From positions 2,224,503 through 2,288,502 of the forward strand of contig OY762429.1 in assembly GCA_963665655.1 (NCBI GenBank): DNA of 64,000 nucleotides, in the 5' to 3' direction. The stretch's first letter is position 1; every line of letters begins with the position of its first letter. This DNA comes from Terriglobia bacterium. GTDB taxonomy: Bacteria > Acidobacteriota > Terriglobia > Versatilivoradales > Versatilivoraceae. Both the position numbers and the translations under genes were made by a program. Below are positions 5,593-26,212 of this stretch, in pieces. The notes beneath the pieces were generated by a model, which ran no database searches, was not told the DNA's origin, and was given only the letters and a program-made list of their open reading frames with translations.

Positions 5593-6026
5593 CCGGCGAA
5601 TTTCAACGTTCAAGGGCCTTGCCCAATAACGGCGCCAGGAGACTTGCAAGCAGGGAGTTAATCCCCCGTGCCAAAAACTCAATCCGACAGAACAGCAGGC
5701 GGATCGCTTCCCGTTGTCCGTCCGGAATCGGCGGGCCAGGAAGCCTATACTATCGAGGCATAAACGCCCAACGATGCCAATGGATGCAGACAGATGGCCG
5801 ACTGATTAACCATTCCTCGCAAAACCGTTCCTCGCAGCTGGACAAAGTTTGCTTCGTGCTGCTTTCGACGGCAGTTTAGGAATCGATTTTCCACTTGATC
5901 ATCTAACCACCCTCGCAAGAGCAAATACCTCGGTGGCCACTTCAGCGTCAGAAGATTTCGGTGGTCGTGGGAGGTAAAGTGAAATCTTCTTGTCTTTTGA
6001 AACATAGTCAAAGCCACTCTCATCAT

Positions 6027-7199: not shown

Positions 7200-7352
7200 T
7201 TCCTCTTTATGAAACTGAGTCTAAAATTCTTAAGGCTAGCGGGTTCGAAAGCTAAGTAGGATTAGTGGGGAGCAACTCCGGTCACTGTCGAACATAGCAC
7301 AGTTTGTCAGCTACAGTCGACCTGGAGGTATCATCCAGTAGCCGGAGTACGC

Positions 7353-11300: not shown

Positions 11301-11698
11301 AGAGTGTGGAGGGTATAGCCAGTCTTGCCGCAAATAAGCCGGCCGGAGAATGGTTCGATCCCGACCTTGATCGGTGCGCCATAGAGCTCGCCGAAATGGC
11401 CCAAAAATTCCTACGTGCCGAGACGTATGCTCGCGTTAAAGGCCGTCCTGACAAACGGCAGGCGATAGCCGTTGTGATCGCCATGGACGGCCGACCTCAA
11501 CCGCTGTTGGAGGAATTCAACATCGCGGATACGGATCGCACTGCCGTCAAAGATCTAGTTGAGCGTGTCGCTAACACCATCGGACAGACCGCCACCAGCC
11601 AACGCGGAATAATTCTGGCAGCGCTAGCGGAACTCACGACGCGCTATATTCAGACAGCGTCGACTGGGCACAATAAGAAAGAAAGAGCAGCCTCATGA
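8312..11698 (+). CDS. sspC: SspC-like large P-loop ATPase
   Basis: Walker [17 protein letters not shown] and a Walker B-like LVLFIDELGKF. Start chosen at the ATG overlapping the sspB stop (TGATG); the ORF is open from 8195, so the start is uncertain. The 3-prime end overlaps sspD by 4 nt. Confidence 0.7.
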   Translation: MSLNDRVRIARRFLRSIRIDSDLGHVAALEGFVCPQSSSNILLTMARHVSQTGQGAFTWTGPYGSGKSSLVVALSALLNGDTGLQDEAAKIFGQELTRTIRDTLPIGTKGWRILPVVARRDDPVTVIGESVRRTALVSRRPRGGWTESNLIATLTKIASENPETHGGLVLFIDELGKFLEAAARDGSDIYILQQLAEASSRSQGRFLVVGVLHQAFEEYAHRLSYEMRDEWAKIQGRFIDLIVNTVGEEQIDLISRAIESDHHPKKPSTLAATVASFACRDRASDAGRIASILETCWPLHPVVACLLGPISRRRFGQNQRSIFAFLNSSEPHGFRDFLCHAREGELYGPDRLWDYLRANLEPSILASPDGHRWALAAEALERCEAIGADAVHIRLLKTISVIDLFKERSGLVANSALLGSCFPETSANGLERALSQLGTWSFTIFKKFLNAHTIFAGSDFNIDEAVRTALDEIDEFDLKALKSLAGLHPILAKRHYHDTGALRWFDVNIVSVSSLVDFVAKHEPENGVIGQFLLAIPTEGESRDYAEDVCRKATRHSDAWDIIVGISKSFWAIVPLARELFALDSVSNNHPGLAGDSVARREVSARLVTLQTLLEAELRKAFDNALWFQKEHRPKRLRQADLNGIASELADRRFGQSPRLHSELLNRQKPSSNAIAAQNALLRCMVMNEGAPRLGIVGFPAEGGLFASILEATGLYVTEEAIGRYVSPITSTDPCNLAAIWKKAINHVKECANRTVTFSELFEQWSKPPFGVKQGMMPVLAVAFVLSHRDKIAVYRDGIFRAKFDDVDVDYLAKDPTFVQVRWMDLSYVARRLLSGLAQVVRDLDTANQLIHLEPIDVGRGLVAVYERLPKWTKRTMRLSSNALRIRELFKRAHDPNQFLFNDLPETLGEDVSFGDENDLRLVIESVREGLHELVGAYTSMLHRLREIMLAELQVPNISPRSLQELRVRAENIKQLSGDFRLEAFVGRLSQFDGSDESVEGIASLAANKPAGEWFDPDLDRCAIELAEMAQKFLRAETYARVKGRPDKRQAIAVVIAMDGRPQPLLEEFNIADTDRTAVKDLVERVANTIGQTATSQRGIILAALAELTTRYIQTASTGHNKKERAAS

Positions 11699-12534
11699 CC
11701 AAACCTGCTGTGAAGCATGTGCTCGGGCTGTCCGGTGGGCGAGATAGCGCGGCGCTAGCCGTCTACATGCGGCAAAACCATCCCGCAATCGATATCCAGT
11801 TTTTTTTTACGGACACAGGCAAGGAACTGCCCGAAGTGTATGAATTTCTAGGGCGACTTGAAGGTTTTCTTGGTAAACCGATCTTGCGGCTGAATCCTGA
11901 CCGTGACTTCGATTTCTGGCTTAAGCAATACAACCACTTTCTGCCATCGCCGCAAACGCGCTGGTGCACACGGCAGCTTAAACTGCGCCCGTTTGAGCAC
12001 TGGCTTCGCCCATTGCTTGCCAATGGAACGATGATCTACAGTTATGTTGCTATTCGCAGTGACGAGCAGTTCCGTGAAGGGTACTCCTCTAAACATAGCA
12101 ATTTGGTTGTCAAACTGCCGTTCAAGCAGGCCGGGATCGATAAAGCTGGTGTGCTTGAAATCCTAGATGGAGCCGGGCTTGGCCTACCGAATTATTATTC
12201 TTGGAGAACGCGTAGCGGCTGCACTTTTTGTTTTTTCCAGCAGAAGATCGAATGGGTTCGGCTCAAACAGCAGCACCCGGAGGCGTTCGAGGAAGCCAAG
12301 GCGTACGAAAAAAACGCCGTTGAAAACGGTTCACCTTTTACATGGAGCCAAGGTGAATCTCTCCAGCAGCTTGAAAAGCCGGAGAGGATCGTGCAGATTA
12401 GGGCGGATCATGAACGACGTTTGGCCCGCATGCGCTCCAAAGCCAAGCCAAACCCGCTTAGGCCGGATAGCGAGCCTCTAGATATTGACGACTTGTACGG
12501 AAAAGCCAAAGTCTGCCTCGCATGCCACAAGTAG
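11695..12534 (+). CDS. sspD: SspD/DndC-family PAPS-reductase-like ATP pyrophosphatase (PP-loop)
   Basis: PP-loop motif LGLSGGRDSAALAV at the N-terminus, the PAPS reductase fold pattern, cysteine-containing C-terminal motifs (CTFC; CLACHK) and ATGA overlap with sspC. Confidence 0.8.
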   Translation: MTKPAVKHVLGLSGGRDSAALAVYMRQNHPAIDIQFFFTDTGKELPEVYEFLGRLEGFLGKPILRLNPDRDFDFWLKQYNHFLPSPQTRWCTRQLKLRPFEHWLRPLLANGTMIYSYVAIRSDEQFREGYSSKHSNLVVKLPFKQAGIDKAGVLEILDGAGLGLPNYYSWRTRSGCTFCFFQQKIEWVRLKQQHPEAFEEAKAYEKNAVENGSPFTWSQGESLQQLEKPERIVQIRADHERRLARMRSKAKPNPLRPDSEPLDIDDLYGKAKVCLACHK

Positions 12535-12552
12535 CTAAAATATTGACTGAAA

Positions 12553-14028
12553 TCAACTAAGAGCGTGTAGGGACATCAGCCTTGGGTAACGCTTAGCGAT
12601 ATCGGGATGCCGTCGCAGTCGATCTTCAAGATCCCGAGCTTCCCACCATTCGGCTTGAAAGACCTTCTTCCTTCTCATACCGTCCAAATGATCCACAAGT
12701 GAAGAACTGATTCTCGGATGTGCGATCAGGAGAAATCCGTCCGCCTGATGGCGCTCAAGCGTGTCTCTGATGTCCTGAACATCGCTTTTGCCAATCGTCC
12801 GTTGTCGGGATTTCACCTGCGCTATGAAGCGCAAAACTCTTGTTCCTTTGAAACAGACTGCGGCACCACCCTTAGACGTGGAGTCTTTTGCTCCTGTCGA
12901 ATGGGGAGCGGGAACTTTCCTGTCAATCAGAATATCACGTCCGCTATCTCTGTCGTTGACCGTCCCAACCGGTTTCGCTTGAAGGACTCCTGGTTCCCTC
13001 CGAACCAAATCAACACAAAGGTCTTCAAAGTCGCCTGGAGACATTGGTGTCTTCCAGTCAATAATCGAATCCGCAAAAAATACGCTATTTTCCCCGCTTC
13101 GTCGCTCAAGTAGGTTTTTTCTTTCCCGTTCATAAACGACGCGTCCACATTCGCCGCGAATTGCAACAATTGTCTTATCTCCGATGAAGAGACAGTGACT
13201 ATCTAGTGGCATCACAACTACGTTCTCACACCCATCGGCAGTGAGTGAAAACAGTTTGTGCGCCTTCTTGGTTAAAGCGAATGGAATTGCATTCGGTATA
13301 CCATTTGCGAGGATCGCCAATGATTTTTCGCCCTTTACCATCTCGGGTGAATAGGGGCTCAAAGCGCCTCTCAGAAGAGCTAAACGGTTCTTCGGCATCC
13401 GAATGATTGTCACGCCGCGATCATGTGACGCGAAATACATCCAAACCGGAAATGTTCTTTTGCTGATCGTCACATCTTTCGGATTTCTCAGGTACCTTGT
13501 GACAGGAACCACCCATACCGGTTCTTCGGTTTTGTGTACCACGGTCAAATCTGGACGATTTTGCAATCGGCCTTGATCCCACTGGAACACATCGCTTAAG
13601 AGGTGAAAGGCGAATGCGGTCCATGCATTCATGGATTTTCTTGCGGCCTCGAATGTGTCATCCGAGATGTTCCAAGGGCATTGCTCAAATATCACGTAAC
13701 GTGCGCCGATCTCACCTGGAACAAAGCCGTGAGGCTCATCAATTAGCCGCACAGAACCAAGCCCAAATGCGCGTAGCACTCCACCCCAAATCAGCGACAA
13801 GACGTCATGCACGTCGGTCCGGTCGCCATCGAATTGAGCGCCAGATGTGGTGACTACACCCCAAAGCAGTAGCCGTTTCTCACAGTCTTGACCAGCCGGC
13901 AAGTCAAGCATACGAAAGGGTTCGTGTGTTAGACCTGAACATTCAAATACGGGAGGTTTGTATAGTGTCTCTTGACCGCCAACTGACAACGCGGAGGCCG
14001 CCCTTGCAAATATGCTGTCAGCTTCCAT
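12553..14028 (-). CDS. Hypothetical protein with a C-terminal Mrr-like restriction endonuclease (PD-(D/E)xK) domain
   Basis: The C-terminal segment RFIAQVKSRQRTIGKSDVQDI...ADGFLLIAHPRISS resembles the Mrr_cat core. Last gene of the minus-strand operon, abutting the upstream gene. Confidence 0.5.
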   Translation of the reverse strand: MEADSIFARAASALSVGGQETLYKPPVFECSGLTHEPFRMLDLPAGQDCEKRLLLWGVVTTSGAQFDGDRTDVHDVLSLIWGGVLRAFGLGSVRLIDEPHGFVPGEIGARYVIFEQCPWNISDDTFEAARKSMNAWTAFAFHLLSDVFQWDQGRLQNRPDLTVVHKTEEPVWVVPVTRYLRNPKDVTISKRTFPVWMYFASHDRGVTIIRMPKNRLALLRGALSPYSPEMVKGEKSLAILANGIPNAIPFALTKKAHKLFSLTADGCENVVVMPLDSHCLFIGDKTIVAIRGECGRVVYERERKNLLERRSGENSVFFADSIIDWKTPMSPGDFEDLCVDLVRREPGVLQAKPVGTVNDRDSGRDILIDRKVPAPHSTGAKDSTSKGGAAVCFKGTRVLRFIAQVKSRQRTIGKSDVQDIRDTLERHQADGFLLIAHPRISSSLVDHLDGMRRKKVFQAEWWEARDLEDRLRRHPDIAKRYPRLMSLHALS

Positions 14029-15930
14029 CTATTCTCCCTCTGCTGAGAGGATATCGGTGATTTTCATGACGAAAGGCGCCTTGCGGTAATTACTCTTTGC
14101 AGAAATACCTTCTTCGACTCCCTCATTTCGCACGAGGTAAAGGTACGTCCGATTGTCTTTACCCTTTTCCGCATTCCATTTTCCATTCTGTCGCGGAAGT
14201 TCCATCAATCCCCGTTCAAATCGCTCGAAGAAGTCAAGATCGGTCTTCATGGCTGAGAGGCTTTCCTTCGCCGACGTGCGTACATCCTCAAGCGGATAAC
14301 TCTGCATAGTTTCCCTCAACGCATCGCACACGTCTTCTCCAAGCACCAAATGGTCGACTCTCCTTCCCTGTGCGTCTCGACCCACGAAGCAGCTCGCGGT
14401 TTCCATCGATTCAACCGGAACTGAGCGCGTAGTCGCATCAGGGGAAACTACATATAAGGCAATTGAAACCGGAAACGTCGCGGGAGGTTTTGCAGGCTGA
14501 CCAATACGCCCCATATCAGCCAGCAACTTCTGCTGAAGTTCCGTGGCAAAGATCTCACGAATTCGACCTACGCGTACGTAACTGCTACTGTGCTGGAGCC
14601 CCTCGCAAAGTGTTGCAAGAGGGATTGTTTGTCGTTTTTTAAGATGCCACCTGATCCAATGCCTTGACCCATCTTGCGATTTGAAGATCGGCGTCTTGGT
14701 TACCGTAGCTCCATAAGACCAATCTTTCGCCACAAGGGGCATTAGAGTACCAGGCAGAACGAACACATTTTCTGTCTCAGCGCGCGCTAAATCGCACGCG
14801 GGTGTTGCAACGAGAAATACCTCACTTGTCAATTTCCCAGTTTCTGTGTTCTTGCGTCGCAAAACGTCCCCGTATTGAATTGTTGGCACGTCCTGACCGA
14901 CTGAGAGTTCCAACCTTCGGACGTGTTGAAAGATCATGCGATGCACAAGGTCTTGGAGATCAGATGAACCTGCCAAATGCGGAGCAGGGTACTGGCCCAA
15001 CTCAATCTTGTTTAATTCTTGAGCCGCGGATATTGTTCCAACTTGGGCTTCTATCTCGTGCTGTAAGACACGATCTGAAACATCCAAGAGATACTCGCCG
15101 AGCTTTTGCCCTTCGAAATCCAGCAAAAGTGTCCGAATCTGTGCCAAATCAGATAAATCTAGGCGGCGTAGAATTCTTACAAAGTTGTCTCGTGCCTGCT
15201 CCAAACCGTCATTCCACGATTGGACGAATGCAGCAACCCGTTTGGCATCTTCATAATGGTTTGCCAGCCGGGTCAGCAAAGTTTCGAGCCTGCCATCCTT
15301 CGTCAAATCAGCCTTGCTTGCGATCCGAAATGTTGAACCGAGAAGTCCCGCCTTATCACGAAAATCATTGCGCTTCTCCCAGAGCCGAGTGCTCCTTGAC
15401 ATCAATACTACTAGTGGCGGCTTGTGCGCACGATTCGTAACGAGTTGCGAGACACGGGAGACTGCACGGTCCATATCCTGTTCAGACTGATGAAAGCCGA
15501 GGAACAAATCGATGAAGATTAGGTCCGCCTCTCTCGCTCTCTCATCGAACTCCTTCCCCATCGTTGAACAGGTCAAGCCGAAACCTTCAAGGGCCACGAT
15601 AAGTGCCTCTAAGATTTTCCGCTCTGCCTCCTGGGTACTCTCGTAGTCTCTGAATAAATGCTCACGCGCTTCAGTTGGCAGCTTGTCCCGGTATTCCCAC
15701 AAGATACTGATAAACTCCTGAGATCCGATCAGATCGCCCATAGACGTGCGTTCATATCCCGGAAACAGGTTCGAAAGTAACGCGTTTCCGGAAGCGCCCA
15801 GGTCATCAAAGAAATTCGACCAATCGCCCTCGGTGAGTTCGTCAGGACGCGGTATATCGTCGAAGACGTCATCGATAACAACAGCGTTTTTGACAACCCT
15901 CTTTTTCAACAGCTCGCGCAGTTTCTTCAT
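14029..15930 (-). CDS. Hypothetical protein with receiver-domain-like N-terminal motifs
   Basis: N-terminal VVIDDVFDD, a later IFIDLFLG and PLVVLMSRS resemble REC beta1/beta3/beta4 elements, but the spacing is non-canonical. 4-nt overlap with the upstream histidine-kinase-like gene. The C-terminal 400 aa has no recognisable domain. Confidence 0.4.
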   Translation of the reverse strand: MKKLRELLKKRVVKNAVVIDDVFDDIPRPDELTEGDWSNFFDDLGASGNALLSNLFPGYERTSMGDLIGSQEFISILWEYRDKLPTEAREHLFRDYESTQEAERKILEALIVALEGFGLTCSTMGKEFDERAREADLIFIDLFLGFHQSEQDMDRAVSRVSQLVTNRAHKPPLVVLMSRSTRLWEKRNDFRDKAGLLGSTFRIASKADLTKDGRLETLLTRLANHYEDAKRVAAFVQSWNDGLEQARDNFVRILRRLDLSDLAQIRTLLLDFEGQKLGEYLLDVSDRVLQHEIEAQVGTISAAQELNKIELGQYPAPHLAGSSDLQDLVHRMIFQHVRRLELSVGQDVPTIQYGDVLRRKNTETGKLTSEVFLVATPACDLARAETENVFVLPGTLMPLVAKDWSYGATVTKTPIFKSQDGSRHWIRWHLKKRQTIPLATLCEGLQHSSSYVRVGRIREIFATELQQKLLADMGRIGQPAKPPATFPVSIALYVVSPDATTRSVPVESMETASCFVGRDAQGRRVDHLVLGEDVCDALRETMQSYPLEDVRTSAKESLSAMKTDLDFFERFERGLMELPRQNGKWNAEKGKDNRTYLYLVRNEGVEEGISAKSNYRKAPFVMKITDILSAEGE

Positions 15931-18356
15931 GAGACAACGACCTCGTCGGGCAGTTGCAGAATGAAACGATGGAGGCGGCCTGTTTCGGGATTGAACTCGT
16001 CCTGCAGTGTCAGGCTTCCGCCGTGGTATTCGGCACAGTCGCGGGCGATGTAGAGACCGAGACCCCTGCGTTTGGATTTTTCTTTCAGCGAAAAGAACGC
16101 CCGAAAGACCTTCTCTCGGTTCTCCTTCGCGACACCACGGCCATTATCTTCATAGTTGATCGTGAGGGGATCATCTTCCATCGCAATGGTGATAAACGGC
16201 TGGAAGCCCGGCTGGTGCTGTTGGCGAAGGTCCAGCCAATAAAGCGAGTTCGATATCAAGTTTTCGATTATCTGCACGATCATTCCCTTGACGGCGCGAA
16301 TACGAACAGCACGCTCAGGCACGATAACCTTCAGCTTCACATCATGACGTGCAAATTGCAGCTCGTGACCGCTCAAAATATCTCCAATCAGGCTACCCAA
16401 ATTGAACGTTTCCTTTCGTTGACGGCCCGAAACACTAAGCGGATCAAGAACACGAAGGCGCTTACTTACCGACTTCATCTCCGACCGCAACGAATTCAGC
16501 AATCCGTCTATCTGGGCCGGAACGTCTTCCTCACGTAAGGCCTCAAGTGCAGCAAGCGCATTTTCCGTCGATCGGGCTAGTTCATGGGCCACGACTTCGA
16601 CTAGCAGCCCAACACCCGCCATCTGCATCATCTGCCGATTCTCGCTCTCGACCTCGGCAATCCGCCTTTCAGCACGAGTGAAGAATTCTTTTATTTCAAA
16701 GAAGGTGTGCTGCAATTCATCAACAATACTCGCCGAGACTGGAGCTATGTGCCTTATTTTCTTTAGTGCCACGCTTGCCCTTTTTTCGAGGCTAGACACA
16801 TCCGTCTTGGCTTCCGTCATATCGATGGGCTGGCCTTTGTAACGCCGTTGCACGTCCTTCAAAAACTCACGGAGGTGGTATTGAATGGCAAATTGCAGCA
16901 GGCCAATGAACGCTTGCTGTTCGGGGCAAACACGCAAGCCTTCGCGGTTTGTCTGGTCAGTGAGTGGCGGGTTGCCTAGCCGTGAAATCTTAACACGGCC
17001 GCAGAATTGTGCTTTGTTGAGGAGGTACCCCATACTACCGAGCGCACGCCGGTCCAAGCCTAGCCAATCGTCGTCGTCGTCTCCGTAAGGCAAAATCCGG
17101 AATCCATCACGGAATAGTAGGATCCCGGACCAGCGCTTTTGCAGTTCTCGCACAACGTTCCGATTTCCAATGCTGTCGATGGCTCCCAAGCGCCGCCGAT
17201 TAAACCAATACGCCTCGAATTCGAATTCACCCAAATCGTCTAGTGCTGACGGCGGGATTTCTCTCGATGTGCCGGTAATCGCCCCTTCAAGGTCGGGCGG
17301 GGTGAATACCCGTTTTTCAACTTCACGCGGGTGATCGAATCCCAGATTCAAAGCTTCGTAGCTGCATTCCAGAGTTGGGCCGGAATCATTGCAGACATAA
17401 CGTCCCTTTACCGCTGCATGTCGATGCGCCAAGAGAAGATGATCCATGCGAGCTATAGAAACGCGCGCACCATTCCAAAATAAAGCAATTCGGGGTCTCC
17501 GCTTGGCATCAGCGAACGGATCGGTAAGCCGCGCAAAGTCATGCTCACCTAAGTATTTGACTCGCTCATATGTCCAGTCCGCTCCTAGAGCACCGATGAT
17601 CAACCGTGTGCCGCTCCAGTCTGGCTCCGGCTTCGCCGAACCGCACTCAGGTATGATGTCGATCTCATCAATCATCGCTTCTAGGTCGCCAAAAGCAGAC
17701 CAGTCAATTTTGAGCAAATTTAGGTATTTGTCCTGTTTCTCTGCCGTTTCGACCGTAAGCTTGTCGCCTAGGCGCATGGCGGAGAGTCGTCCGATCCCCT
17801 TTTCACCTAGATAGGGTGCGCGCTGTTTTTCTGCGTTAGGACTCGCGAGCGCGGCGTCTATCACGCGTTTCCGAGAAGCTGTTCCCACTACGAGATAGTT
17901 ATCGATCAAATCCTGATGCGACATCCCCGTGCCCCTGTCGGACACGATAATTCGATTTTCAACGGTGTACGCATTGTCAAGGGCCTGAACAAGAGATGCT
18001 GGATCTTCGGCTCTGTCGATCGCCCTGCGGAAACGATTCAGTGAGCTCTGTGGGGCAGACGGATTGAGAACATGCTCAACATTCACCTTCAGACCGTTGA
18101 TATCAACCGATCCGTCAGTTGCCCTCTGGCGGATCCTCAAATAGTCATTCCGCCGTAGGACGATTTCAAAATGAATTTCCACACCGTTCGTAGACTTAGC
18201 GTCAAACGCGTTCTTGATCAGCTCATAAAATGCAATAATATCCGAACTGATAAGTTCAGCCCCGAGTTCCAGAATTGTCCGGGCGCAAATCTTGAACAAC
18301 CTGTTTACCTCCCTTTGTTGTTCGGCTTGCTGGTCAACGGTCAGGCGATGATGCAA
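15927..18356 (-). CDS. Cytoplasmic GHKL ATPase - histidine kinase fusion protein
   Basis: N-terminal GHKL domain (N-box FYELIKNAFDA, G1 VSDRGTGMS, G2 GEKGIGRLS). Central H-box VVAHELARSTENALAAL. C-terminal HK catalytic domain (N-box ENLISNSLYW, G1 EDNGRGV, G2 GLGLYIARDCAEYHGGSL). No TM segments. Confidence 0.65.
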   Translation of the reverse strand: MHHRLTVDQQAEQQREVNRLFKICARTILELGAELISSDIIAFYELIKNAFDAKSTNGVEIHFEIVLRRNDYLRIRQRATDGSVDINGLKVNVEHVLNPSAPQSSLNRFRRAIDRAEDPASLVQALDNAYTVENRIIVSDRGTGMSHQDLIDNYLVVGTASRKRVIDAALASPNAEKQRAPYLGEKGIGRLSAMRLGDKLTVETAEKQDKYLNLLKIDWSAFGDLEAMIDEIDIIPECGSAKPEPDWSGTRLIIGALGADWTYERVKYLGEHDFARLTDPFADAKRRPRIALFWNGARVSIARMDHLLLAHRHAAVKGRYVCNDSGPTLECSYEALNLGFDHPREVEKRVFTPPDLEGAITGTSREIPPSALDDLGEFEFEAYWFNRRRLGAIDSIGNRNVVRELQKRWSGILLFRDGFRILPYGDDDDDWLGLDRRALGSMGYLLNKAQFCGRVKISRLGNPPLTDQTNREGLRVCPEQQAFIGLLQFAIQYHLREFLKDVQRRYKGQPIDMTEAKTDVSSLEKRASVALKKIRHIAPVSASIVDELQHTFFEIKEFFTRAERRIAEVESENRQMMQMAGVGLLVEVVAHELARSTENALAALEALREEDVPAQIDGLLNSLRSEMKSVSKRLRVLDPLSVSGRQRKETFNLGSLIGDILSGHELQFARHDVKLKVIVPERAVRIRAVKGMIVQIIENLISNSLYWLDLRQQHQPGFQPFITIAMEDDPLTINYEDNGRGVAKENREKVFRAFFSLKEKSKRRGLGLYIARDCAEYHGGSLTLQDEFNPETGRLHRFILQLPDEVVVS

Positions 18357-18412
18357 AGAAACGCGCCCGACTCCGATTTCCCCCAGCTACCAATCTGATC
18401 ATCCGTGCCGTC

Positions 18413-18877
18413 CTATGCTACCTTTGCATTCCTCAAAAGCGCGTCAATACAATCCGAGAGGTTCCAGATCGGCTCCGCATCACCGTCATTGAGCATTTCA
18501 ATGATCTTGGGTAGCCCAGCTACGGCAAGTCCGCTGGCGAGCACCATCATCCTTCTCGGTTCCGATACGATCTGCACATCGCCAGTCTTTCCGATCGCGA
18601 TCAGCATAAGGGTATGCACGCGCCACGGATCGCTGCCGAATATCGATCCGTCGATGATCTTCTTCGTTTTGAATTTAGAGGGGTCTCTAGGTTCCAGACC
18701 AAGCCGCGCTGCGACGCAGACAGACAGGAACCAGAGATCGACCATGCGCGGAAACGGACTCTGATCGATGATCGCATCGGCGCTCCTTTGGCAGTAACGA
18801 GTAAACGCCTCGTGGAATTCCTCTGGGACGTTAATGTCGATCGCCTGAAACGGATTGAAATAACGGTCCGCCATCAC
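18413..18877 (-). CDS. Hypothetical protein (154 aa)
   Basis: Tightly packed between the SMC-like ATPase (4-nt overlap) and the HK-like gene, with island-like low GC. No recognisable motif. Confidence 0.45.
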   Translation of the reverse strand: MMADRYFNPFQAIDINVPEEFHEAFTRYCQRSADAIIDQSPFPRMVDLWFLSVCVAARLGLEPRDPSKFKTKKIIDGSIFGSDPWRVHTLMLIAIGKTGDVQIVSEPRRMMVLASGLAVAGLPKIIEMLNDGDAEPIWNLSDCIDALLRNAKVA

Positions 18878-21030
18878 CTGTCTCCTATGATTGACGCTAT
18901 GTCTCTGTCGACCTGCGCATCGTCATGGCGTTGACAAAGTTGGCATTCCTTGCGGTGATTGCATTCACAGCGCAGAACCTTACGTTCAGCGACGCCCGGA
19001 TCGTTGACGAGCATTTTCGGGTAATGCGTCGTATTGGTCAGCGTGAAAACTACACCCGCCGTCTCATCGATGATGTCCTCGCACCCGGCGATTTCATCGT
19101 GAGTGAGAAAGAGCACGAGCTGTGTACTTTCGCGTACTGCCTTTCGCAGTATCGAGCGCTTGACGTACCCGCTTGTCATCCCGAGCGGCGTGTCGATGAC
19201 ATTGGGCGCTTCGACCTCGCTGACCCTCGTTAGCGCAAGGATGAAAGCCAGTGTCAGTGCGCGTCGCGATGCCCCGTTGAGGTCACGGTCCGGGTTGAGC
19301 ATCCTGTTGTTCGGCCCGTAGACGATTATGTCGAATTCCCGGCTGATTTCGGCGTGCCGGATAATCGCGCCCTGTTGCGGGTCCGCGCCGATCATTTCGA
19401 GAAAGATGTAATTCATCCGTTCGCTGACCTTGGCGAGTTCCTCATTCGCCATCCGCCTATACGCGCTCATCAATACCTTCATCACATCCTGAGTGACTTC
19501 AAGTTCGGCCAGTATGCGTGCGCCTTTCTTCTGCTCGCGCAGCAGTCGGTCGCGTGTGTTCTCAAGGATTTCGCGTTCACGGTGGAGCCCTGTGAGCTGT
19601 GTTTCGATTGCAGCACGCTTTGCCAGACACCGGTCGCGCTGGTCCTTGTATTGCCGCAGGGTTACCCGCAGGCCTTGGATGTCTGTGTTCGGCAATGCGT
19701 CGAGTTGTAGTTCCAGCCCTCGGTATTTGCGTCCCGCTTCATCGCGAACGATCTGGATGCCATCCCGACGTTCGACGACCTTCTTGTACTCTTCTAGCCA
19801 TTCGCTAGTCGCCGCATTGCCAGCACCTTGCAACGGCTTAGCACTGTAAAACAGGTCAGTAATAATCTCTTGAATTTCGTCGGCGCGCTGGCTGTCATCG
19901 ATCAGCTTCTGAATATAGGCGCGACGCTTGTCACCTTGCAGGTCTCCCGGTTCAAGCGTTTCACCACAAATGCAGAGTTCGGCTGAGAGGCGCTCTTGCA
20001 AGACCGGGATCGTCGTGTTAGGGATCTTGCCCTGATCGTGTAGTTCTTCGAGTTTCTCGTAGGCCTTGCCGAGCAGGGGCGCAAGCAGATCGGTCGCGAT
20101 TGAGCGGCTACGGAAAAGGGCCGAATGTTCCTTGTTGGCTGTAGCGAGCTGGTAATCGAGTTGCCCTATATCTTGCCTGGTGGTTTCAAGCTCCTTCCGT
20201 AGCTTCACCTTGTCACCTTTTTGAAGGGCGGCTGCGATTTTGCGGTCGGTTTCGTTCACCTTCTCTTCGAATGCTGCGAATTGCTGTTTCACATCCTCGA
20301 GATCGTCTTCCAGTTTGTTCCAGTCCTCATTAATTTCTTCGAGGCGTGAAGCGGTGCTGTTCAGCTCGCTGTCACTTCCGACCTGTTTCGCGTTCCTGTT
20401 CACTTCTGCTGCAGATTTGCGGACATGCTTAATCGCATCGCCGATCACACCGACGCCGAGAAGGGAACGGATAGCGCGCTGAACGCGCTCGCGCTTGGTC
20501 GAAAGTGCTGCATCGGCTTCGATGAAGCTGAGCGCGCGGTCGCCATCCGTAAAGAAGACCTCACGCAGTTCCGGCGGTAGTTCGTCGTTGATAAGGGATT
20601 CGGGTGCAACGATGGGAGCTGCGCCGCTGTCGTTCAGCGCAAACAGCTTCACCGTTGATGCTGAACGGTAAGATCTGCTTTCCACGTCTTCGAAAGCGGA
20701 ACGAACGAGGCGATAGTGCCGCCGCGTTTTGCGTAGTTTACCGGCCAATCTCCGGTAAGTCTTTAACTCGAACTCCAACGTCGCAGTGATTGGAACCCGT
20801 TTGCGCTCATTCGCATCCCAGTCGATAGGATGCAAGCGAAAACCATCGCCCTTGCCCGGCAAGGCAACGTCGCCGTAGAGCGCCCATTGCAGCGCATGAA
20901 GGATCGTCGTCTTACCTGATTCGTTCGCCGCACGTATGATCGTGAGGTTCCTCTCGGCATCGCTGGCGAATTCAAGCTCCAGATTCCGGAGCAGCCGGAA
21001 ATTTTCAAATGAGGCGCGAAGTAGCTTCAT
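18874..21030 (-). CDS. SMC/RecF/SbcC-like AAA ATPase with a long coiled-coil (DndD-like architecture)
   Basis: N-terminal Walker A NESGKTTILHALQWALYGD, a long heptad-rich middle region, a C-terminal signature/Walker B region (LVLFLTHDE) and terminal Cys cluster CECNHRKECQLC. Confidence 0.6.
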   Translation of the reverse strand: MKLLRASFENFRLLRNLELEFASDAERNLTIIRAANESGKTTILHALQWALYGDVALPGKGDGFRLHPIDWDANERKRVPITATLEFELKTYRRLAGKLRKTRRHYRLVRSAFEDVESRSYRSASTVKLFALNDSGAAPIVAPESLINDELPPELREVFFTDGDRALSFIEADAALSTKRERVQRAIRSLLGVGVIGDAIKHVRKSAAEVNRNAKQVGSDSELNSTASRLEEINEDWNKLEDDLEDVKQQFAAFEEKVNETDRKIAAALQKGDKVKLRKELETTRQDIGQLDYQLATANKEHSALFRSRSIATDLLAPLLGKAYEKLEELHDQGKIPNTTIPVLQERLSAELCICGETLEPGDLQGDKRRAYIQKLIDDSQRADEIQEIITDLFYSAKPLQGAGNAATSEWLEEYKKVVERRDGIQIVRDEAGRKYRGLELQLDALPNTDIQGLRVTLRQYKDQRDRCLAKRAAIETQLTGLHREREILENTRDRLLREQKKGARILAELEVTQDVMKVLMSAYRRMANEELAKVSERMNYIFLEMIGADPQQGAIIRHAEISREFDIIVYGPNNRMLNPDRDLNGASRRALTLAFILALTRVSEVEAPNVIDTPLGMTSGYVKRSILRKAVRESTQLVLFLTHDEIAGCEDIIDETAGVVFTLTNTTHYPKMLVNDPGVAERKVLRCECNHRKECQLCQRHDDAQVDRDIASIIGDR

Positions 21031-21041
21031 GTGTCCAATTC

Positions 21042-21272
21042 CTACTTACCCGCATTTTGGGCTCGCTGGTCCGCCAGGAAGTGCGCAGCGGCGTTGCATT
21101 TGTCATTGATTTTCTTCTGGATAGTCGTCGCAGAAACGCGATGACCTCGTTCGTATTCAAAAATGTCTGAAATCACGTCGATAATCTCTTCCCTGTAGCC
21201 ATTGCAGCGTTCTTCGATCTCTGCGCATTCCTCAAGGATGATCGAGATTATCTTCTTGTCATTCAGTGGCAT
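21042..21272 (-). CDS. Small hypothetical protein (76 aa)
   Basis: Fits exactly between the helicase and the ATPase genes, with gaps of 18 and 12 nt. No recognisable domain. Confidence 0.4.
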   Translation of the reverse strand: MPLNDKKIISIILEECAEIEERCNGYREEIIDVISDIFEYERGHRVSATTIQKKINDKCNAAAHFLADQRAQNAGK

Positions 21273-21289
21273 CTTGCAATCCTCCAGCC

Positions 21290-23542
21290 CTACAAGTAGG
21301 CAGCATCCACCATCTTGTCAATTGTTGCCAACGGCCCGTCCGGACGTCCAGCATTGCCAGCAAGCCGCGCGAATTCCTGTGCGCGGCGCAACTCGGAGCG
21401 CACGAGGCTACGTGCATCGGGGTCGAGCCCGTCTTCCATCTTGGGTGGTAACGCCAGTAAGTCATGAATGACACTAAACGTCTTTCCGATCGCACTGCAG
21501 GTTCGCAGTAATCGTCCGCGCCGCTGCACCCATTGCCGCTCCACAGTAGTGCTCGCGAGAATGAACGCCTTGCATATTTGCGGAATGTTCACGCCTTCAT
21601 CGAGTACGCGCTTGGCCGTCAGAACCTGAATCTCGCCGTCTTGGAAAGAGCCAATAATTCGTTTTGTCTGGTCTCTGCTCGCGGTTTCTTTCGCTGTTAG
21701 CTGATGGAACAAAATGTTCTTGTCCCGTAGCAGTCGGTTCACATTGTCGAGCTGTTCTGGTCCTTTATCCGAAGCATACACAAGAGTATGCCGCAACCCG
21801 CTGGCATCCTTTTCTTCAAGCAGGGACTTCAGCATTGCCACTTTGCCTGAGGCAGTTTCCAGTAGCGCCCGCCGATCGCGTAGCAGCTTGGCGAGGTACT
21901 CGTCTGGCTTGCCGTCCTTTTCGCGCCAAGCGTTCTGCTTGATCTTACCTGTCATAAAGAACCACTGGTCCATTTCACTTTCAGTCAGATAGACCGGGTG
22001 CAAGTAGTAGTCGTATTCGACAAGGCAGCGCCCGATTGCTTCTTCAAGCGTAAAGCGAAAAACTACCGGACCAAAAAATCCTAACAGCGCTTCCGTTCCC
22101 TTTTCGTCATATTGGCGGCTCGGTGTTGCTGACAGACCGATCCTATGCTCGAAAAACTCCGGCGGTCCTCCGGTGAATGAAACGCGCCCGAGATTGTGAG
22201 CTTCATCTGCGATTAGCAGCCTCGTGCACTCGAATCCATCTACAACATCGAGAAATTCTGGTGTGCACAGAGTATCGTGGCTGACGACGACTGCCTCGAC
22301 CTGCGACAGACCAGTGCGCAAGCGCCGTTTGATTTTGTGAAGCTCTCTCGCACGGTTGTTAGCGCCACCTGCCGTCGTAAGATTGATTGGTTTCAGTCCG
22401 AAGGGAACGATTTCATCGCACCACTGTTCGATCAAGGGTACATAGGGCGCAGCAATGACAATCAGAAGGGTATTGCACCTTTGATAAAGGCGGTGTGCAG
22501 CGATCATCGAGGTGATGGTTTTCCCAGAGCCAGTCGCCATCTCCAGGATGCCGCGAAATCCTGCCTTGCACCAAGCATTGACCGCCTTGCCCTGGTGTTC
22601 AAACGGACCGTCTTCGTATCGCAGAAATCTCGGTATCGCAAAGTCTTTCTTCAGTGCGGGAACGGACCCGTAAGATTCGGGGGGTTCCGCAACCCTCGTG
22701 GCGCGACAGTAGAGCGTGCGAAGTTCGTCTTCGGTCGGTGGGGTCTCCGCGCTGTAGGTACGCAGCAGGCGCAGCTTCACGGCCTCCGGCATCGCGATTA
22801 CTATGCAATTATCATCCCTGTTCTCCCACAAGCCTCCGAATTTATAGCTCAGCTTGTCGGTAATGTAGCGCTGGTTCGGGTCCTGCCAAGAACGCGAGAT
22901 TGCTATTTGTTCTATGTTTTTGCGAATACCAGCATAGGTTACATTGCTCGATCCGTGAGCCGCGACGATATCGGTACCATTTTCGAACAACCAAACCTTC
23001 GGATGAAAGAGCGCTTCTTTCATCAGGGCAACCTTGATTTCGATACGATGCTCACGTACTAGCCAGGTCAAACATTTCAACGTGTGGCGCTGCAGCAGAT
23101 CTTCCGTGACTGTCAGCTCTTTCAAAATCCTATCGGCGACTGTTTCCGGGGAGTGTAAACCGTCCCTGATGGCGGCCTGGTCTTCGGTCCGTAGCACTGG
23201 ACTGATGATCAGCCTGAAGCTACTCTCCGAACAGGCAATATAGGTTGCAAGGCCAGGAGCAAGCGAGGCTAGCACTTCACTTGAGAAAAAACCAACCATA
23301 CACGCAACCCTTTCCGCTGCCTGGAAGCTGGGAATCAACACTTCTTCGGCGAGCGGATCGCCCGGGAGTATGTAAAGTGGTCTGGCTTCGTCCAGCGACT
23401 GCAAACTCCTCACTTGTGTCAATGTGTTCGGGTCTCGCCGCACTGGCGGTTCATTTGTCATATGAATTCCCTTCATTCGTCGTTGTCGAATTGACCGACT
23501 CGATCGCGCGTAATGAAGTGCCGGTTGCAATGCCGGCACCAT
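21290..23542 (-). CDS. PLD-like (HKD-variant) nuclease domain fused to an SF2 DEAH-box helicase
   Basis: N-terminal HPKVWLFE...AAHGSSN resembles an HxK...GSxN PLD motif. Helicase motif I EMATGSGKT, motif II LLIADEAHNLG and a C-terminal QRRGRLLR (motif VI). The start is uncertain: alternative Mets at 23476 and 23461. Confidence 0.65.
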   Translation of the reverse strand: MVPALQPALHYARSSRSIRQRRMKGIHMTNEPPVRRDPNTLTQVRSLQSLDEARPLYILPGDPLAEEVLIPSFQAAERVACMVGFFSSEVLASLAPGLATYIACSESSFRLIISPVLRTEDQAAIRDGLHSPETVADRILKELTVTEDLLQRHTLKCLTWLVREHRIEIKVALMKEALFHPKVWLFENGTDIVAAHGSSNVTYAGIRKNIEQIAISRSWQDPNQRYITDKLSYKFGGLWENRDDNCIVIAMPEAVKLRLLRTYSAETPPTEDELRTLYCRATRVAEPPESYGSVPALKKDFAIPRFLRYEDGPFEHQGKAVNAWCKAGFRGILEMATGSGKTITSMIAAHRLYQRCNTLLIVIAAPYVPLIEQWCDEIVPFGLKPINLTTAGGANNRARELHKIKRRLRTGLSQVEAVVVSHDTLCTPEFLDVVDGFECTRLLIADEAHNLGRVSFTGGPPEFFEHRIGLSATPSRQYDEKGTEALLGFFGPVVFRFTLEEAIGRCLVEYDYYLHPVYLTESEMDQWFFMTGKIKQNAWREKDGKPDEYLAKLLRDRRALLETASGKVAMLKSLLEEKDASGLRHTLVYASDKGPEQLDNVNRLLRDKNILFHQLTAKETASRDQTKRIIGSFQDGEIQVLTAKRVLDEGVNIPQICKAFILASTTVERQWVQRRGRLLRTCSAIGKTFSVIHDLLALPPKMEDGLDPDARSLVRSELRRAQEFARLAGNAGRPDGPLATIDKMVDAAYL

Positions 23543-23799
23543 ACCAGGTAATGAATTCCCATAAAGCTCGCCAGATCAATCAACCCACAAATTGGTTAAG
23601 CGCTTCCATGTTCAAACCGCTTGGGGACGTGCTTAACTGTCTCGCTAGTTTCAAAAAAAGAGTGTTGACTCCTATGAAAGTCATCGCCTACGGCGATTGC
23701 TACGCACAACCCAAGTTGGGGCGGATGCTCCGCAAAAGGGGGGTTAACGTTTTGTTTGAGGGCATGGACGGGGGGCACCACCGCTGTGGTTCCACTAAA

Positions 23800-24513
23800 T
23801 CAGCGCCCTAATAGTGTTCTAAGTTTCTCTATTACGTGCCATTGTCTGGATCGCCTTAGATAACCCGGATGGTACGTTCGGAAGGATTTCCTATGCTCTT
23901 TGTCGTGGTTCAAACGGTTCAAGCAAGCTAAGCAACGCAAATTGAATCCCTTGACCTGTTCGAACTCCACACAGGGGAAGGTTGCTTTGATTCGGTTATC
24001 ATACCAATGCCCAGTGAAGAGAATGACAACATCTGGTTTTGTTACGCACAGTTCGTACTGGCGAAGACAGGTCGAGCAGATTAGCTCCTCAAGCTCATGG
24101 TGAGGCTTCTGCCCATTGTCATCAACTTTGATCAGGTTTGACCAAAGGAATCCCCGCGGTGGTCCGTCGGGATTCAGAAAATTGTAGACCTCATAAGCCG
24201 CTTGCCAGAAAGGCGATTTCATTTTCCTTTTCCCCATCTCGAAACGACGATACTGGTCGAGGAGAGCCTCAATACCATCTTCTGGGTGGCCCCACCCGTT
24301 CGTTTGCTGGCCGACCACCATCAACTTCACGCTTGCTTCGTGGTACGCGTGGGGAACATGGATAAGCAATGGTCCTCCAAGATTCCGTTCCTTAGAAAGC
24401 TGGGACCAAACATCATTATCAAGAACCGTCGAATACATCTCGAAGAGCTTACGATTCATGTCGAACATTCGGTCCCCTTTATTGGCGTCCCAGGTGCTCA
24501 GCGTGCGGACCAC
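23800..24513 (-). CDS. Hypothetical protein (237 aa), first gene of the minus-strand island operon
   Basis: Coding-like ORF in the low-GC island, preceded by a ~330-bp AT-rich non-coding region. No recognisable domain. Confidence 0.4.
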   Translation of the reverse strand: MVRTLSTWDANKGDRMFDMNRKLFEMYSTVLDNDVWSQLSKERNLGGPLLIHVPHAYHEASVKLMVVGQQTNGWGHPEDGIEALLDQYRRFEMGKRKMKSPFWQAAYEVYNFLNPDGPPRGFLWSNLIKVDDNGQKPHHELEELICSTCLRQYELCVTKPDVVILFTGHWYDNRIKATFPCVEFEQVKGFNLRCLACLNRLNHDKEHRKSFRTYHPGYLRRSRQWHVIEKLRTLLGR

Positions 24514-24847
24514 AATGGGATCAGGAGGCTACGAACAACCTTGAGTCCCATCTCAGCAATGAACTTTGCAGATGTTGCTGCCTTCCAACCGACTGTCATG
24601 GAGTTGCTAAGTTCAATGGTCAAGCTGGAATAGCCCATAATATGGGTCCGCGTTTCTACAGAAACACCACTCGCATGAAAGTGAAACGATTCAGAAGCAA
24701 TTTATAACCCCTGACACACACTATTTCGCACACTTCCAAGAAAACATCCTGGCTGAGATCCCATAGGTCGTGAGTTTTCTCGTTCAGGATAAGTGATAAA
24801 TCTGGCACCCATGGTTTGTTCGCCCCACTTCAGGTACAGACTTCACC

Positions 24848-25600
24848 TCACGGCCACTTCCAATTGACTTTCGCTTCGGACCGCCGCACGGTGAGGGCGC
24901 GTAGGTCCGGGGCCGCGGTCTAATACCCGCGGCCGGCCTTTGGCCCAAAGAGCCTTGATTTCCTGGACGAGTGCCCCTGACGGATCGTTGCACAGGTCAC
25001 CCGTCGGGATCCCACGGTCGCAGCCTGGGGATCCAGCGCGGCACGTTGGCCTTGTAGCACCGATAGCTGTCTCCGAATCGCCTTTCCAGGCCCGGCTCCT
25101 CAAACCTCAGGAAATAGAGCATCTTGAGCAGGAAAAAGACCGCCATCCACCCGGCCAGGTGCCACGAGCCCAAGAGCAGCGATTCGGCGCCGAGGAGGAG
25201 AAGCACGCTCGTAATAATAGGATTTCTGACGTGGCGGTAGGGGCCGTAAACAACCAGTCTGGTTGGTGGAGCCCAGGGCGCGGGAGTCCCCCTGCCGACC
25301 TTCACAAACAGCTTGGCGCACCAGGTAGACAAAACCAGGCCGGTGGTCGCCAAGGCAATGCCGCTCCAGAATCGGACCTGTTCCGGCCCTGCCGGAGCAA
25401 TGGCGCCCGGCCTATCGGCCACCAACCACAGGATCGCGCCGGGAATGTACACGAGGATGGTGCCCGGAAGGATGAGGATGTGCTTGACCCACTGCAGAAT
25501 CATTCCCGTCCCAACGGCCAGACTGCTCTCAGGGCCCTTTCCAATTGACCTCCGCGTCGGGCCGCCGCAGGTAGAAGGCGCGCAGGTCCGGGGGCGCGGT
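24848..25600. repeat. Imperfect direct repeat (~63 bp, ~84% identity): one copy at 24848-24910, the other at 25535-25600 (the 3-prime end of tsaB)
   Basis: TTCCAATTGAC followed by about 52 further alignable bases with ~10 mismatches in both copies. The second copy encodes the TsaB C-terminus; the first lies at the right edge of the low-GC island. Confidence 0.7.
24997..25503 (-). CDS. Isoprenylcysteine carboxyl methyltransferase / phospholipid methyltransferase family membrane protein (paralog of the gene at 543..1076)
   Basis: YRHVRNPIITS motif and a C-terminal EEPGLERRFGDSYRCYKANVPRWIP, with hydrophobic helices. High GC. Confidence 0.6.
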   Translation of the reverse strand: MILQWVKHILILPGTILVYIPGAILWLVADRPGAIAPAGPEQVRFWSGIALATTGLVLSTWCAKLFVKVGRGTPAPWAPPTRLVVYGPYRHVRNPIITSVLLLLGAESLLLGSWHLAGWMAVFFLLKMLYFLRFEEPGLERRFGDSYRCYKANVPRWIPRLRPWDPDG

Positions 25601-26212
25601 CCACTCCCCCCGGTCCGCCTTGGAATACGCCAGGGCGGCCAGGGCGCGGCCCAGAAAGGGATCGGTCTGGGCTACCCGCCACCGGGCGCGGTTCCTGGAC
25701 CGGATAAGCTCCCGATATTTCTGGGCCCCGCCTCCCAGGAAGAGCACGGTCTCCTCGTCCAGGGCGTCCAGCAGTTCTCCCGGGGCGCCCACAAACCCGG
25801 AGTCCCGCTGAACCAGGCCGGTCCGGCCGCGCTCGAAGACCGCAGCGTACACCTCGCCCCGGCGGGCATCGATCATGGGGACCATCACCCCGCGCCACTC
25901 CGGGAACCTTTCCACCCAGGCCTCGAAGGCGGTAACGGCAACGGTGGGCCTGTCCCGCGTTTCCGCCAGACCCTTGACCGTGGTCAATCCGATCCGGACG
26001 CCGGTGAAGGAACCGGGACCGCAGATGACCCCGAAGGCCTGAATGTCATCAAGAGACCATTCCGAATGGCTGAGGAGGTGCTGGATGCCGGACAGCAGTC
26101 GAGCGGTGTGGGTAAGGGCGGAATCCAGGTTGATCTCGCCCAGGATGGTGTCATCCTCCGATAACACAATGCTTCCGGCGCTGCCGGAGGTGTCCAGGCA
26201 AAGGAGTTTCAC
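25529..26212 (-). CDS. tsaB: tRNA threonylcarbamoyladenosine biosynthesis protein TsaB (YeaZ)
   Basis: MKLLCLDTSGSAGSIVLSEDD N-terminus and the inactive-Kae1-like ASKHSD fold pattern, ~227 aa. Confidence 0.75.
   Translation of the reverse strand: MKLLCLDTSGSAGSIVLSEDDTILGEINLDSALTHTARLLSGIQHLLSHSEWSLDDIQAFGVICGPGSFTGVRIGLTTVKGLAETRDRPTVAVTAFEAWVERFPEWRGVMVPMIDARRGEVYAAVFERGRTGLVQRDSGFVGAPGELLDALDEETVLFLGGGAQKYRELIRSRNRARWRVAQTDPFLGRALAALAYSKADRGEWTAPPDLRAFYLRRPDAEVNWKGP

Follow-up and report, generated by a model that had tools for sequence, protein, structure and literature searches.

The 64,000-nt stretch of contig OY762429.1 analyzed here (Terriglobia bacterium, Acidobacteriota; assembly GCA_963665655.1, positions 2,224,503 to 2,288,502; "the window") raises a simple question: why does the 3' end of tsaB (yeaZ), a housekeeping gene, occur a second time exactly where a low-GC defense island ends? 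A preliminary description of the window had taken this duplicate for an att-like remnant of the island. Our comparisons lead to a different answer: the duplicate is a fossil older than the island, and we favor, as reasonably probable, an explanation in which it is a displaced, decaying former tsaB 3' end created by a homology-anchored insertion. The elements at the tsaB side are the following.

24847 to 24940, minus strand: copy 1, the fossil tsaB 3' end, a pseudogene fragment (repeat search and blastn; nhmmer E, 2.3e-25)
24941 to 24996, minus strand: 3' flank of the methyltransferase gene, 56 nt, up to the abrupt fossil junction; contains the quasi-palindrome GGCTCTTTGGGCCAAAGGCC
24997 to 25503, minus strand: PEMT/ICMT-family methyltransferase gene, intact, 168 aa (PF04191 E, 4.3e-8; weak match to NF040696)
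25504 to 25528, minus strand: spacer of 25 nt from the tsaB stop codon to the methyltransferase ATG
25528 to 25621, minus strand: copy 2, comprising the last 30 codons and stop of functional tsaB (repeat search and blastn; translation the same as in orthologs)
25529 to 26212, minus strand: tsaB (yeaZ), intact, 227 aa (TIGR03725 T6A_YeaZ E, 4.9e-42; PF00814; orthologs)

A repeat search of the window aligned 24847-24940 with 25528-25621 as an ungapped direct repeat of 94 nt at a spacing of 681 nt. The duplicated gene end next to the island edge is thus real, as described before, but it is larger and more diverged than the reported 63 bp or so with about 10 mismatches: by direct count, the copies are identical at 75 of 94 positions and differ at 19. 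The shared 11-mer TTCCAATTGAC does occur twice, and exactly twice in the window, but at 24858-24868 and 25539-25549 rather than at 24848 and 25535, the earlier coordinates being about 4 to 10 nt off. The pairwise alignment that had been proposed as a check puts the similarity far beyond chance (blastn E, 6.5e-21 within the window), and no other site in the 64-kb window matches the repeat better than an E value of 0.019. A fortuitous resemblance between two GC-rich sequences, an idea for which the high GC content of both copies and nothing else can be cited, is refuted by this E value, by a chance expectation of 0.04 for the 11-mer (two matches in 0 of 100 shuffles), by a reading frame and stop codon that are in register, and by the presence of the fossil in six other contigs (see below).

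The similarity breaks off sharply on both sides, at 24940/24941 and one base beyond the stop codon. The pattern G.GGGC.CT follows both stops; local alignment against shuffled sequences gave no significant duplication beyond the stop. The GC content of copy 1 (68%) is close to that of tsaB (67%), and to the left of copy 1 it falls from about 64 to 68% to the 52.8% of the island (5715-24846), so that copy 1 is located at the GC break, where the preliminary description had placed it. The DNA between the copies also corresponds to that account in holding only an ICMT-family methyltransferase gene, a single intact open reading frame (ORF). The two copies bracket this gene alone, and the island lies outside the pair.

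The copies differ in their coding state. As had been noted, the second copy encodes the TsaB C terminus, and through it tsaB is intact, full length, and in frame; it reads KADRGEWTAPPDLRAFYLRRPDAEVNWKGP*. Copy 1, read in the register of copy 2, gives KAGRGY*TAAPDLRALTVRRSEAKVNWKWP*, with an internal TAG codon at 24920-24922. The terminal stop codons are in register (24848-24850 in copy 1 and 25529-25531 in copy 2). The 19 differences are split 8/3/8 over codon positions 1/2/3, which we read as the pattern of a decaying pseudogene fragment.

The window was compared with 21 related tsaB loci (Ca. Versatilivorator, Acidobacteriota), covered with 10-kb flanks and designated here by L numbers. A TsaB-based scan of GTDB species genomes supplied 11 close relatives, all of them metagenome-assembled genomes (MAGs) labelled Ca. 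Versatilivorator, Terriglobia, or Acidobacteriota; 10 further loci came from metagenome scans and from look-ups by methyltransferase and TsaB homologs. The TsaB orthologs in Ca. Versatilivorator genomes are 85 to 93% identical, and the names of the MAG records suggest that these Acidobacteriota are sponge associated. An exact-protein look-up returned no record for either the window's TsaB or the protein encoded at the island edge, and a junction 22-mer gave 0 matches in JGI metagenomes.

The fossil recurs with the same junction in six other contigs, L007 (CBDAOQ010000003.1), L060, L061, L062, L073, and L074 (nhmmer E, 1e-17 to 1e-28). In a tree of 93-nt tsaB ends, all fossils cluster together, apart from every functional tsaB end of the genus. 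The change of TGG to TAG that interrupts copy 1 is common to the window and L060, and the L060 fossil is additionally frameshifted. For the same genome pairs, the fossils are 66 to 82% identical, compared with 91 to 94% for mutS and 87 to 92% for tsaB; because the fossil is so much more divergent than these two genes, it can be regarded as unconstrained. Taken together, the comparisons depict a fragment without detectable function that drifts neutrally. We also considered whether copy 1 might be a mosaic whose 3' half was overwritten by a functional tsaB end during import of the island, and rejected this: 7 sites of the fossil lineage and 5 sites matching the window's own functional copy are interspersed, with no breakpoint.

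Could selection instead maintain copy 1 as a functional element, whether as a small ORF, a regulatory RNA, a homology "landing pad," or a promoter or leader serving the genes of the slot? It has been kept in at least two clades, its frame is still open in L007, L061, L062, and L073, and, as RNA, the region folds somewhat more stably than shuffled sequences do (z, -2.9). However, the open-frame copies come from nearly identical genomes and hence carry little information, the window and L060 have the in-frame stop and L060 the frameshift, copy 1 diverges faster than the neighboring genes, and its differences are spread evenly over codon positions. There was no Rfam match, and no promoter-like or terminator-like site was found within copy 1. 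We regard a maintained function as scarcely credible.

The window's junction between methyltransferase flank and fossil is also found in L007, L060, L061, L062, and L073, and in all seven fossil-bearing contigs the joint reads ...AAGGCyCTTTGGGCCAAAGGCCGGCCGCGGG.... One shared joint sequence in seven contigs argues for a single origin of the fossil. The joint (window 24935-24955; L007 11345-11365) forms the quasi-palindrome GGCyCTTTGGGCCAAAGGCC, the right arm of which is derived from tsaB. Palindromic joints can come from template switching or hairpin-mediated illegitimate recombination. The motif AAGGC is present on both sides of the abrupt joint, inside the quasi-palindrome, and is a candidate microhomology.

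Beyond the fossil's stop codon, the contigs part company. The window continues into the Ssp/Pbe island; L060 continues into pentapeptide, PhoD, and DarT-DarG genes; and L007, L061, and L062 continue into an FGE-sulfatase gene. Because the same fossil and junction precede unrelated DNA in the six other contigs and all fossils form one clade, the fossil is judged to predate the low-GC island and not to have been made by it. IS6 elements occur throughout the group formed by L007, L061, L062, L073, and L074. Transposase ORFs in the slot of L007 (13422-15188 and 15502-17445) and L073 (13201-15231) have an N-terminal DruA-like domain (PF14236) joined to DDE_Tnp_1_assoc and DDE_Tnp_1; these DruA-like/DDE_Tnp_1 ORFs adjoin IS6 copies and tyrosine recombinases.

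To place the fossil in the history of the locus, the arrangement between tsaB and rimI was compared among the loci. The junction states and the loci that exhibit them are as follows.

Empty, with rimI adjoining or overlapping tsaB: L008, L011, and, as a distant outgroup, L012/L034
tsaB, vapBC, rimI: L070 (the window's nearest relative) and, partly, L002
tsaB, methyltransferase, rimI: L003, L009, L032, L033, and L072
tsaB, methyltransferase, vapBC, rimI: L006
tsaB, methyltransferase, 2 kb, rimI: L010
Methyltransferase fragments and vapBC: L001 and L004
tsaB, methyltransferase, fossil, large insert: the window, L007, L060, L061, L062, L073, and L074

In the empty loci, rimI starts within or at the tsaB stop codon, in GTGA in the outgroup L012/L034 and at an ATG inside AAATGG in L008 and L011. 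This arrangement identifies the empty state, with tsaB adjacent to or overlapping rimI, as ancestral and, as far as these loci tell, marks the junction as an insertion hotspot in this genus; the ancestral pair was probably translationally coupled. The conserved flanks are mutS-tsaB on one side and rimI-VKOR-dsbA on the other. Nearly every genome has other cargo between them, and the defense systems Ssp/Pbe, DarTG, and vapBC are part of this cargo. At the same position as in the window, L003, L006, L009, L010, L032, L033, and L072 have the methyltransferase gene without the fossil, and the methyltransferase proteins at this position in relatives are 75 to 90% identical. Two suggestions of the preliminary description gain from these data. 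The duplicated gene end is indeed the footprint of an insertion, since empty sites exist in L008, L011, and the outgroup, and the site does record more than one event, given a fossil older than the island and the different cargo of the relatives.

Three features lie at the opposite edge of the island, toward rimI.

5059 to 5613, minus strand: rimI (GNAT acetyltransferase), which ancestrally followed tsaB as its partner (TIGR01575 score, 86.0 bits; cutoff, 86.4)
5610 to 5636, minus strand: short relic of the ancestral tsaB end or of the tsaB-rimI overlap, directly upstream of rimI (positional match with empty-site L008)
5684 to 5714, minus strand: relic of the vapC (PIN) toxin gene, last 8 codons or so (alignment with L006, L001, and L004; vapBC gene calls in L070)

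The start codon of rimI is probably TTG at 5611-5613 or ATG at 5590-5592. In the window, about 19.9 kb now separates tsaB from rimI, so the expression of rimI must depend on signals of its own. The window becomes homologous to L001, L004, and L006 again at position 5714, within the last 8 or so codons of vapC, the stop codon of which has mutated from TGA to TGT. Intact vapB(DUF6364)-vapC occupies this place in L006, L001, L004, and L070; L060 keeps vapB only, a different portion of vapBC being missing there. The rimI-side junction of the island (5714/5715) therefore lies inside the vapC relic and not at a tsaB-like repeat.

A search of this far-left boundary for a third, degenerate copy, which the preliminary description had proposed, yielded nothing beyond the relic of 11 to 27 nt at 5610-5636. 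Its firm part is only AAGGCCCTTGA (5610-5620); it is indistinguishable from chance in a shuffle test (p, 0.05 to 0.9) and can be recognized solely by its position relative to the empty-site loci. It is common to all insert-bearing loci, and in the window the vapC relic separates it from the island. No third long copy of the tsaB end was found in the window, either by blastn with a word size of 7 or with an nhmmer profile of 14 tsaB ends, and none of the 21 related tsaB loci yielded an additional copy by nhmmer.

The proposal that the repeat is an att-like remnant of the low-GC island is thus not supported: the copies bracket the methyltransferase gene only, the far edge of the island falls in the vapC relic, the fossil is the older of the two, and there is no recombinase. 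Searches with Pfam, NCBIfam, and PADLOC found no integrase, transposase, or recombinase gene between the copies or in the island.

What the sequences document is a single ancient event after which tsaB is continuous and intact; the joint at codon 197 or so is abrupt, the duplicate ends at the stop codon, and there is no recombinase. As to mechanism and order, we infer the following. In an ancestor within the genus, DNA with an intact tsaB 3' end and a PEMT/ICMT-family methyltransferase gene would have been joined into tsaB at about codon 197. One end of the incoming DNA would lie in tsaB homology; the other would be the abrupt nonhomologous joint, 56 nt past the methyltransferase stop codon. 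Homology-facilitated illegitimate recombination is one possible route; the other is that a circularized fragment was inserted by a single crossover (Campbell type) in the 94 or so nt of homology. Either would keep tsaB intact and displace its old last 30 codons and stop downstream, still attached to the DNA that followed them. The donor would be a fragment consisting of tsaB, spacer, and methyltransferase gene, an arrangement extant without the fossil in seven loci.

This explanation would also account for the position of the island. The variable slot would begin right after the old tsaB stop, so that any occupant abuts the stop codon of the fossil; the island would do so because the old boundary between core gene and variable slot lies there. 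The 19-kb SspABCD/Pbe-like island would have arrived later, its other junction being illegitimate and inside vapC. An island edge that cuts vapC, together with the loss of another part of vapBC in L060, fits events with homology on one side. The abrupt joint at 24940/24941 is common to the seven contigs, and the displaced fragment ends at its stop codon with unrelated DNA beyond.

A local tandem duplication of the DNA from tsaB codon 197 or so through the methyltransferase gene, with the second methyltransferase copy and spacer later deleted or overwritten by islands, would give exactly the observed joint, in which the methyltransferase 3' flank is fused to tsaB codon 197. Tandem duplications are frequent, and their general frequency speaks for this possibility. 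In no locus, however, did we find significant similarity between the DNA downstream of the fossil and the spacer downstream of functional tsaB, so that the later deletion would need to have ended at the stop codon in the common ancestor. Moreover, the second methyltransferase copy has left no trace in any locus. We consider a simple tandem duplication quite improbable; the dissimilarity of the downstream DNA fits instead recombining genomes that share tsaB and differ beyond it.

Several observations weigh against homology-anchored insertion. The fossil-bearing genomes fall into two clades, not one, on the mutS tree, from which genome relationships were taken. The empty-site locus L008 nests in a tight mutS clade of carriers of methyltransferase gene, fossil, and island (L007, L061, L062, and L073), and the phylogeny of the methyltransferase gene conflicts with that of mutS. 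The placement of L008 and the conflicting gene tree require the assumption of several losses or of recombinational swaps of alleles: L008 either lost the whole insert precisely, so that tsaB and rimI overlap again, or took an empty allele back in through recombination. No recombination breakpoint is visible within tsaB in a comparison with the nearest relative, L070, from which the window diverges uniformly by about 6 to 7%, and the AAGGC microhomology at the joint is merely suggestive. Tyrosine recombinase genes are present in the slot of L007, L061, and L073 only, and the distal ends of the relatives' islands lie beyond the 10-kb flanks that were examined. Exchange of alleles does seem to occur at this site. 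The methyltransferase allele of L062 is 90% identical to that of the window and the alleles of L007 and L061 are 81% identical to it, while the mutS genes of these three loci are nearly identical, a pattern that points to allele exchange within the hotspot.

Two of these observations, the empty L008 nested among fossil carriers, as precise excision would give, and the tyrosine recombinase genes of L007, L061, and L073, favor site-specific integration. In that scenario, elements with an integrase use the tsaB 3' end as attB and bring a replacement for it in their attP, as e14 and phage 21 do at icd. Copy 2 would represent attL and copy 1 attR of an initial element of which the methyltransferase gene is all that is left; the island would have accreted in tandem as a second element, with copy 1 and the relic near rimI serving as its att sites. 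The in-register duplicate, which takes in the stop codon and ends sharply at its outer boundary, agrees with such integration, as do the existence of empty sites and the short tsaB-end relic upstream of rimI. On the other hand, the window has no recombinase gene between the copies or in its island, the island lies outside the repeat pair with its far edge in vapC rather than at a repeat, and the relic near rimI, of 11 to 27 nt, is not significant. The 21 related tsaB loci have no further tsaB-end copy by nhmmer, a larger first element would need to have been lost exactly to the fossil boundary in the common ancestor, and the fossil is older than the island. We consider site-specific integration unlikely, and keep to a homology-anchored insertion as the favored explanation of copy 1.

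A more far-reaching possibility is that an unrecognized gene-capture system, either without a recombinase of its own or mobilized in trans, docks at the tsaB 3' end. If this were true, small cassettes (the PEMT/ICMT-like methyltransferase gene, vapBC) and larger defense islands would each arrive with a replacement tsaB end, captures would stack between tsaB and rimI as a ladder of tsaB-end fossils, and the tyrosine recombinases in the slots of relatives would be the trans-acting enzymes. Gene capture at tsaB would then represent a new integration target and mechanism. The present evidence does not favor it, and we give it little credence.

The island itself was annotated with Pfam and PADLOC. 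Its features are listed below.

5715 to 24846, no strand assigned: low-GC (52.8%) defense island in the variable slot (Pfam, PADLOC, GC content)
6027 to 7199, minus strand: SspA (PADLOC E, 5.8e-122)
7353 to 8312, plus strand: SspB (PADLOC E, 2e-107)
8195 to 11698, plus strand: SspC (PADLOC E reported as 0; 1321 bits)
11695 to 12534, plus strand: SspD (PADLOC E, 5.9e-135)
12553 to 14028, minus strand: Mrr-like nuclease
14029 to 15930, minus strand: protein of 633 aa without a family match
15927 to 18356, minus strand: HATPase/BbrUII-like protein
18413 to 18877, minus strand: protein of 154 aa without a family match
18874 to 21030, minus strand: PbeC/DndD-like ATPase
21290 to 23542, minus strand: PbeA (PADLOC E, 3.6e-191)
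23800 to 24513, minus strand: UDG-superfamily-like edge protein, 237 aa (homologs carry PF03167, UDG superfamily)

SspA, SspB (DUF4007), SspC, and SspD are encoded together and make up a complete SspABCD phosphorothioation module, in which Pfam matched DUF4007 and PAPS_reduct. Between 6027 and 24513, this module is paired with PbeA and a PbeC/DndD-like ATPase instead of SspE or SspFGH; no model for PbeB or PbeD matched in the island. The island may thus encode an undescribed Ssp-linked set of restriction partners. Gaps between its ORFs are at most 333 nt. It had no nucleotide match in the related tsaB loci and no match in plasmid and phage collections. Its only match in any fetched locus was the 237-aa edge gene, which is 78% identical in L075, a contig obtained through a homolog of the edge protein and not through tsaB.

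The ends of the island were also inspected for signs of other mobile elements. The window contains no tRNA gene, and the island ends have no terminal inverted repeats. The 9-mer CCACTTCAG occurs near both ends in direct orientation (5937-5945 and 24825-24833; E, 0.67), and an overlapping 9-mer, GGCCACTTC, is found at 5935-5943 and at 24852-24860, the end of the fossil (E, 0.67). These were the sole short candidates for island-end repeats and were rejected, since an expectation of 0.67 is the chance level. Transposon insertion with target-site duplication would involve a duplicate of 2 to 14 bp, terminal inverted repeats, and a transposase; the duplicate is 94 nt, the island ends lack such repeats, and no transposase was found. 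An integron-like cassette array, which would have IntI, attI, and a structured attC site after each cassette, was rejected as well: there is no integrase, and the repeated unit is derived from coding sequence, is present in only two copies, and has no Rfam match.

The PEMT/ICMT-like family to which the methyltransferase belongs is very widespread (2492 proteins at an E value of 1e-20 or less) and is represented by proteins 60 to 70% identical in unrelated MAG lineages. The more distant homologs P0010 (L063-L065) and P0032 (L066-L069) do not adjoin tsaB, so the methyltransferase gene is not generally tsaB associated. In the four P0032 contigs, the gene again marks a border: on one side is conserved DNA, with an upstream IS110 transposase, and on the other variable DNA that is different in each contig and includes a serine recombinase, reverse transcriptase fragments, and a Fic gene. 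The spacer that follows the tsaB stop is 25 nt in the window and about 85 to 546 nt in relatives, and we read the short spacer as a lineage-specific deletion removing about 35 nt otherwise conserved after the tsaB stop. A 177-aa ORF elsewhere in the window (543-1076, plus strand) adjoins citrate synthase (1276-2400). Gene calls in L070 and L072 have a PEMT/ICMT match next to citrate synthase, and by synteny the ORF is probably a second, core-genome PEMT/ICMT paralog.

How does this locus compare with known systems? Islands at tRNA and tmRNA genes carry partial direct repeats of the gene's 3' end and accrete in tandem. There, as here, the boundary of an island is marked by a second copy of a conserved gene's 3' end, and layers can build up at one site. 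However, tsaB is protein coding and forms a conserved pair with rimI, the island is not flanked by the repeat, and there is no integrase. Pan-genome studies have described hotspots between core genes that turn over by homologous recombination in the flanks. The tsaB locus resembles these in its conserved flanks and in cargo that differs in almost every genome and includes defense systems; it differs in that tsaB and rimI ancestrally overlap, the hotspot splits them, and junction fossils are retained.

Two protein-coding precedents are close as well. In E. coli K-12, the icd/icdC locus around e14 has an intact 3' end with a homologous C-terminal fragment pseudogene shortly downstream (PMC13626634, citing Hill et al.). 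The likeness, which extends to phage 21, lies in the intact end of a housekeeping gene, a pseudogene fragment in direct orientation, and inserted DNA between them. In contrast, the E. coli insertion is a 15-kb prophage with an integrase and site-specific excision, while the tsaB copies are separated by 681 bp with one methyltransferase gene and no recombinase, and the tsaB locus has a large island outside the repeat pair. At rhs, cdiA, and type VI secretion system effector loci, C-terminal displacement and orphan arrays are attributed to homology-facilitated illegitimate recombination (PMC5361080 and references there). Those loci would share with tsaB a homology anchor upstream and an illegitimate other end, and they share a displaced, decaying old 3' part and layered relics (PMC5361080). 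They differ in that they diversify the toxin tip of the same gene; at tsaB, the gene recovers an unaltered end, and unrelated genes make up the cargo (the methyltransferase gene and then defense islands). We regard the tsaB fossil as one more instance of a familiar and ordinary type of insertion scar, not as a new system.

For annotation, the lesson is that the duplicate of a gene end beside an island need not be an att site of that island; at tsaB, the duplicate is the older of the two and another gene lies between its copies. The locus indicates that an overlapping, probably cotranslated housekeeping pair can become a hotspot for accessory and defense DNA with both genes retained, each insertion keeping or recreating the gene end and leaving a datable fossil. 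In the biology of these Acidobacteriota, the tsaB-rimI slot is a site of defense turnover between close relatives, occupied by SspABCD/Pbe-like, DarTG, or vapBC systems. What stands out most is that the ancestrally overlapping tsaB-rimI pair is now a layered hotspot for defense cargo.

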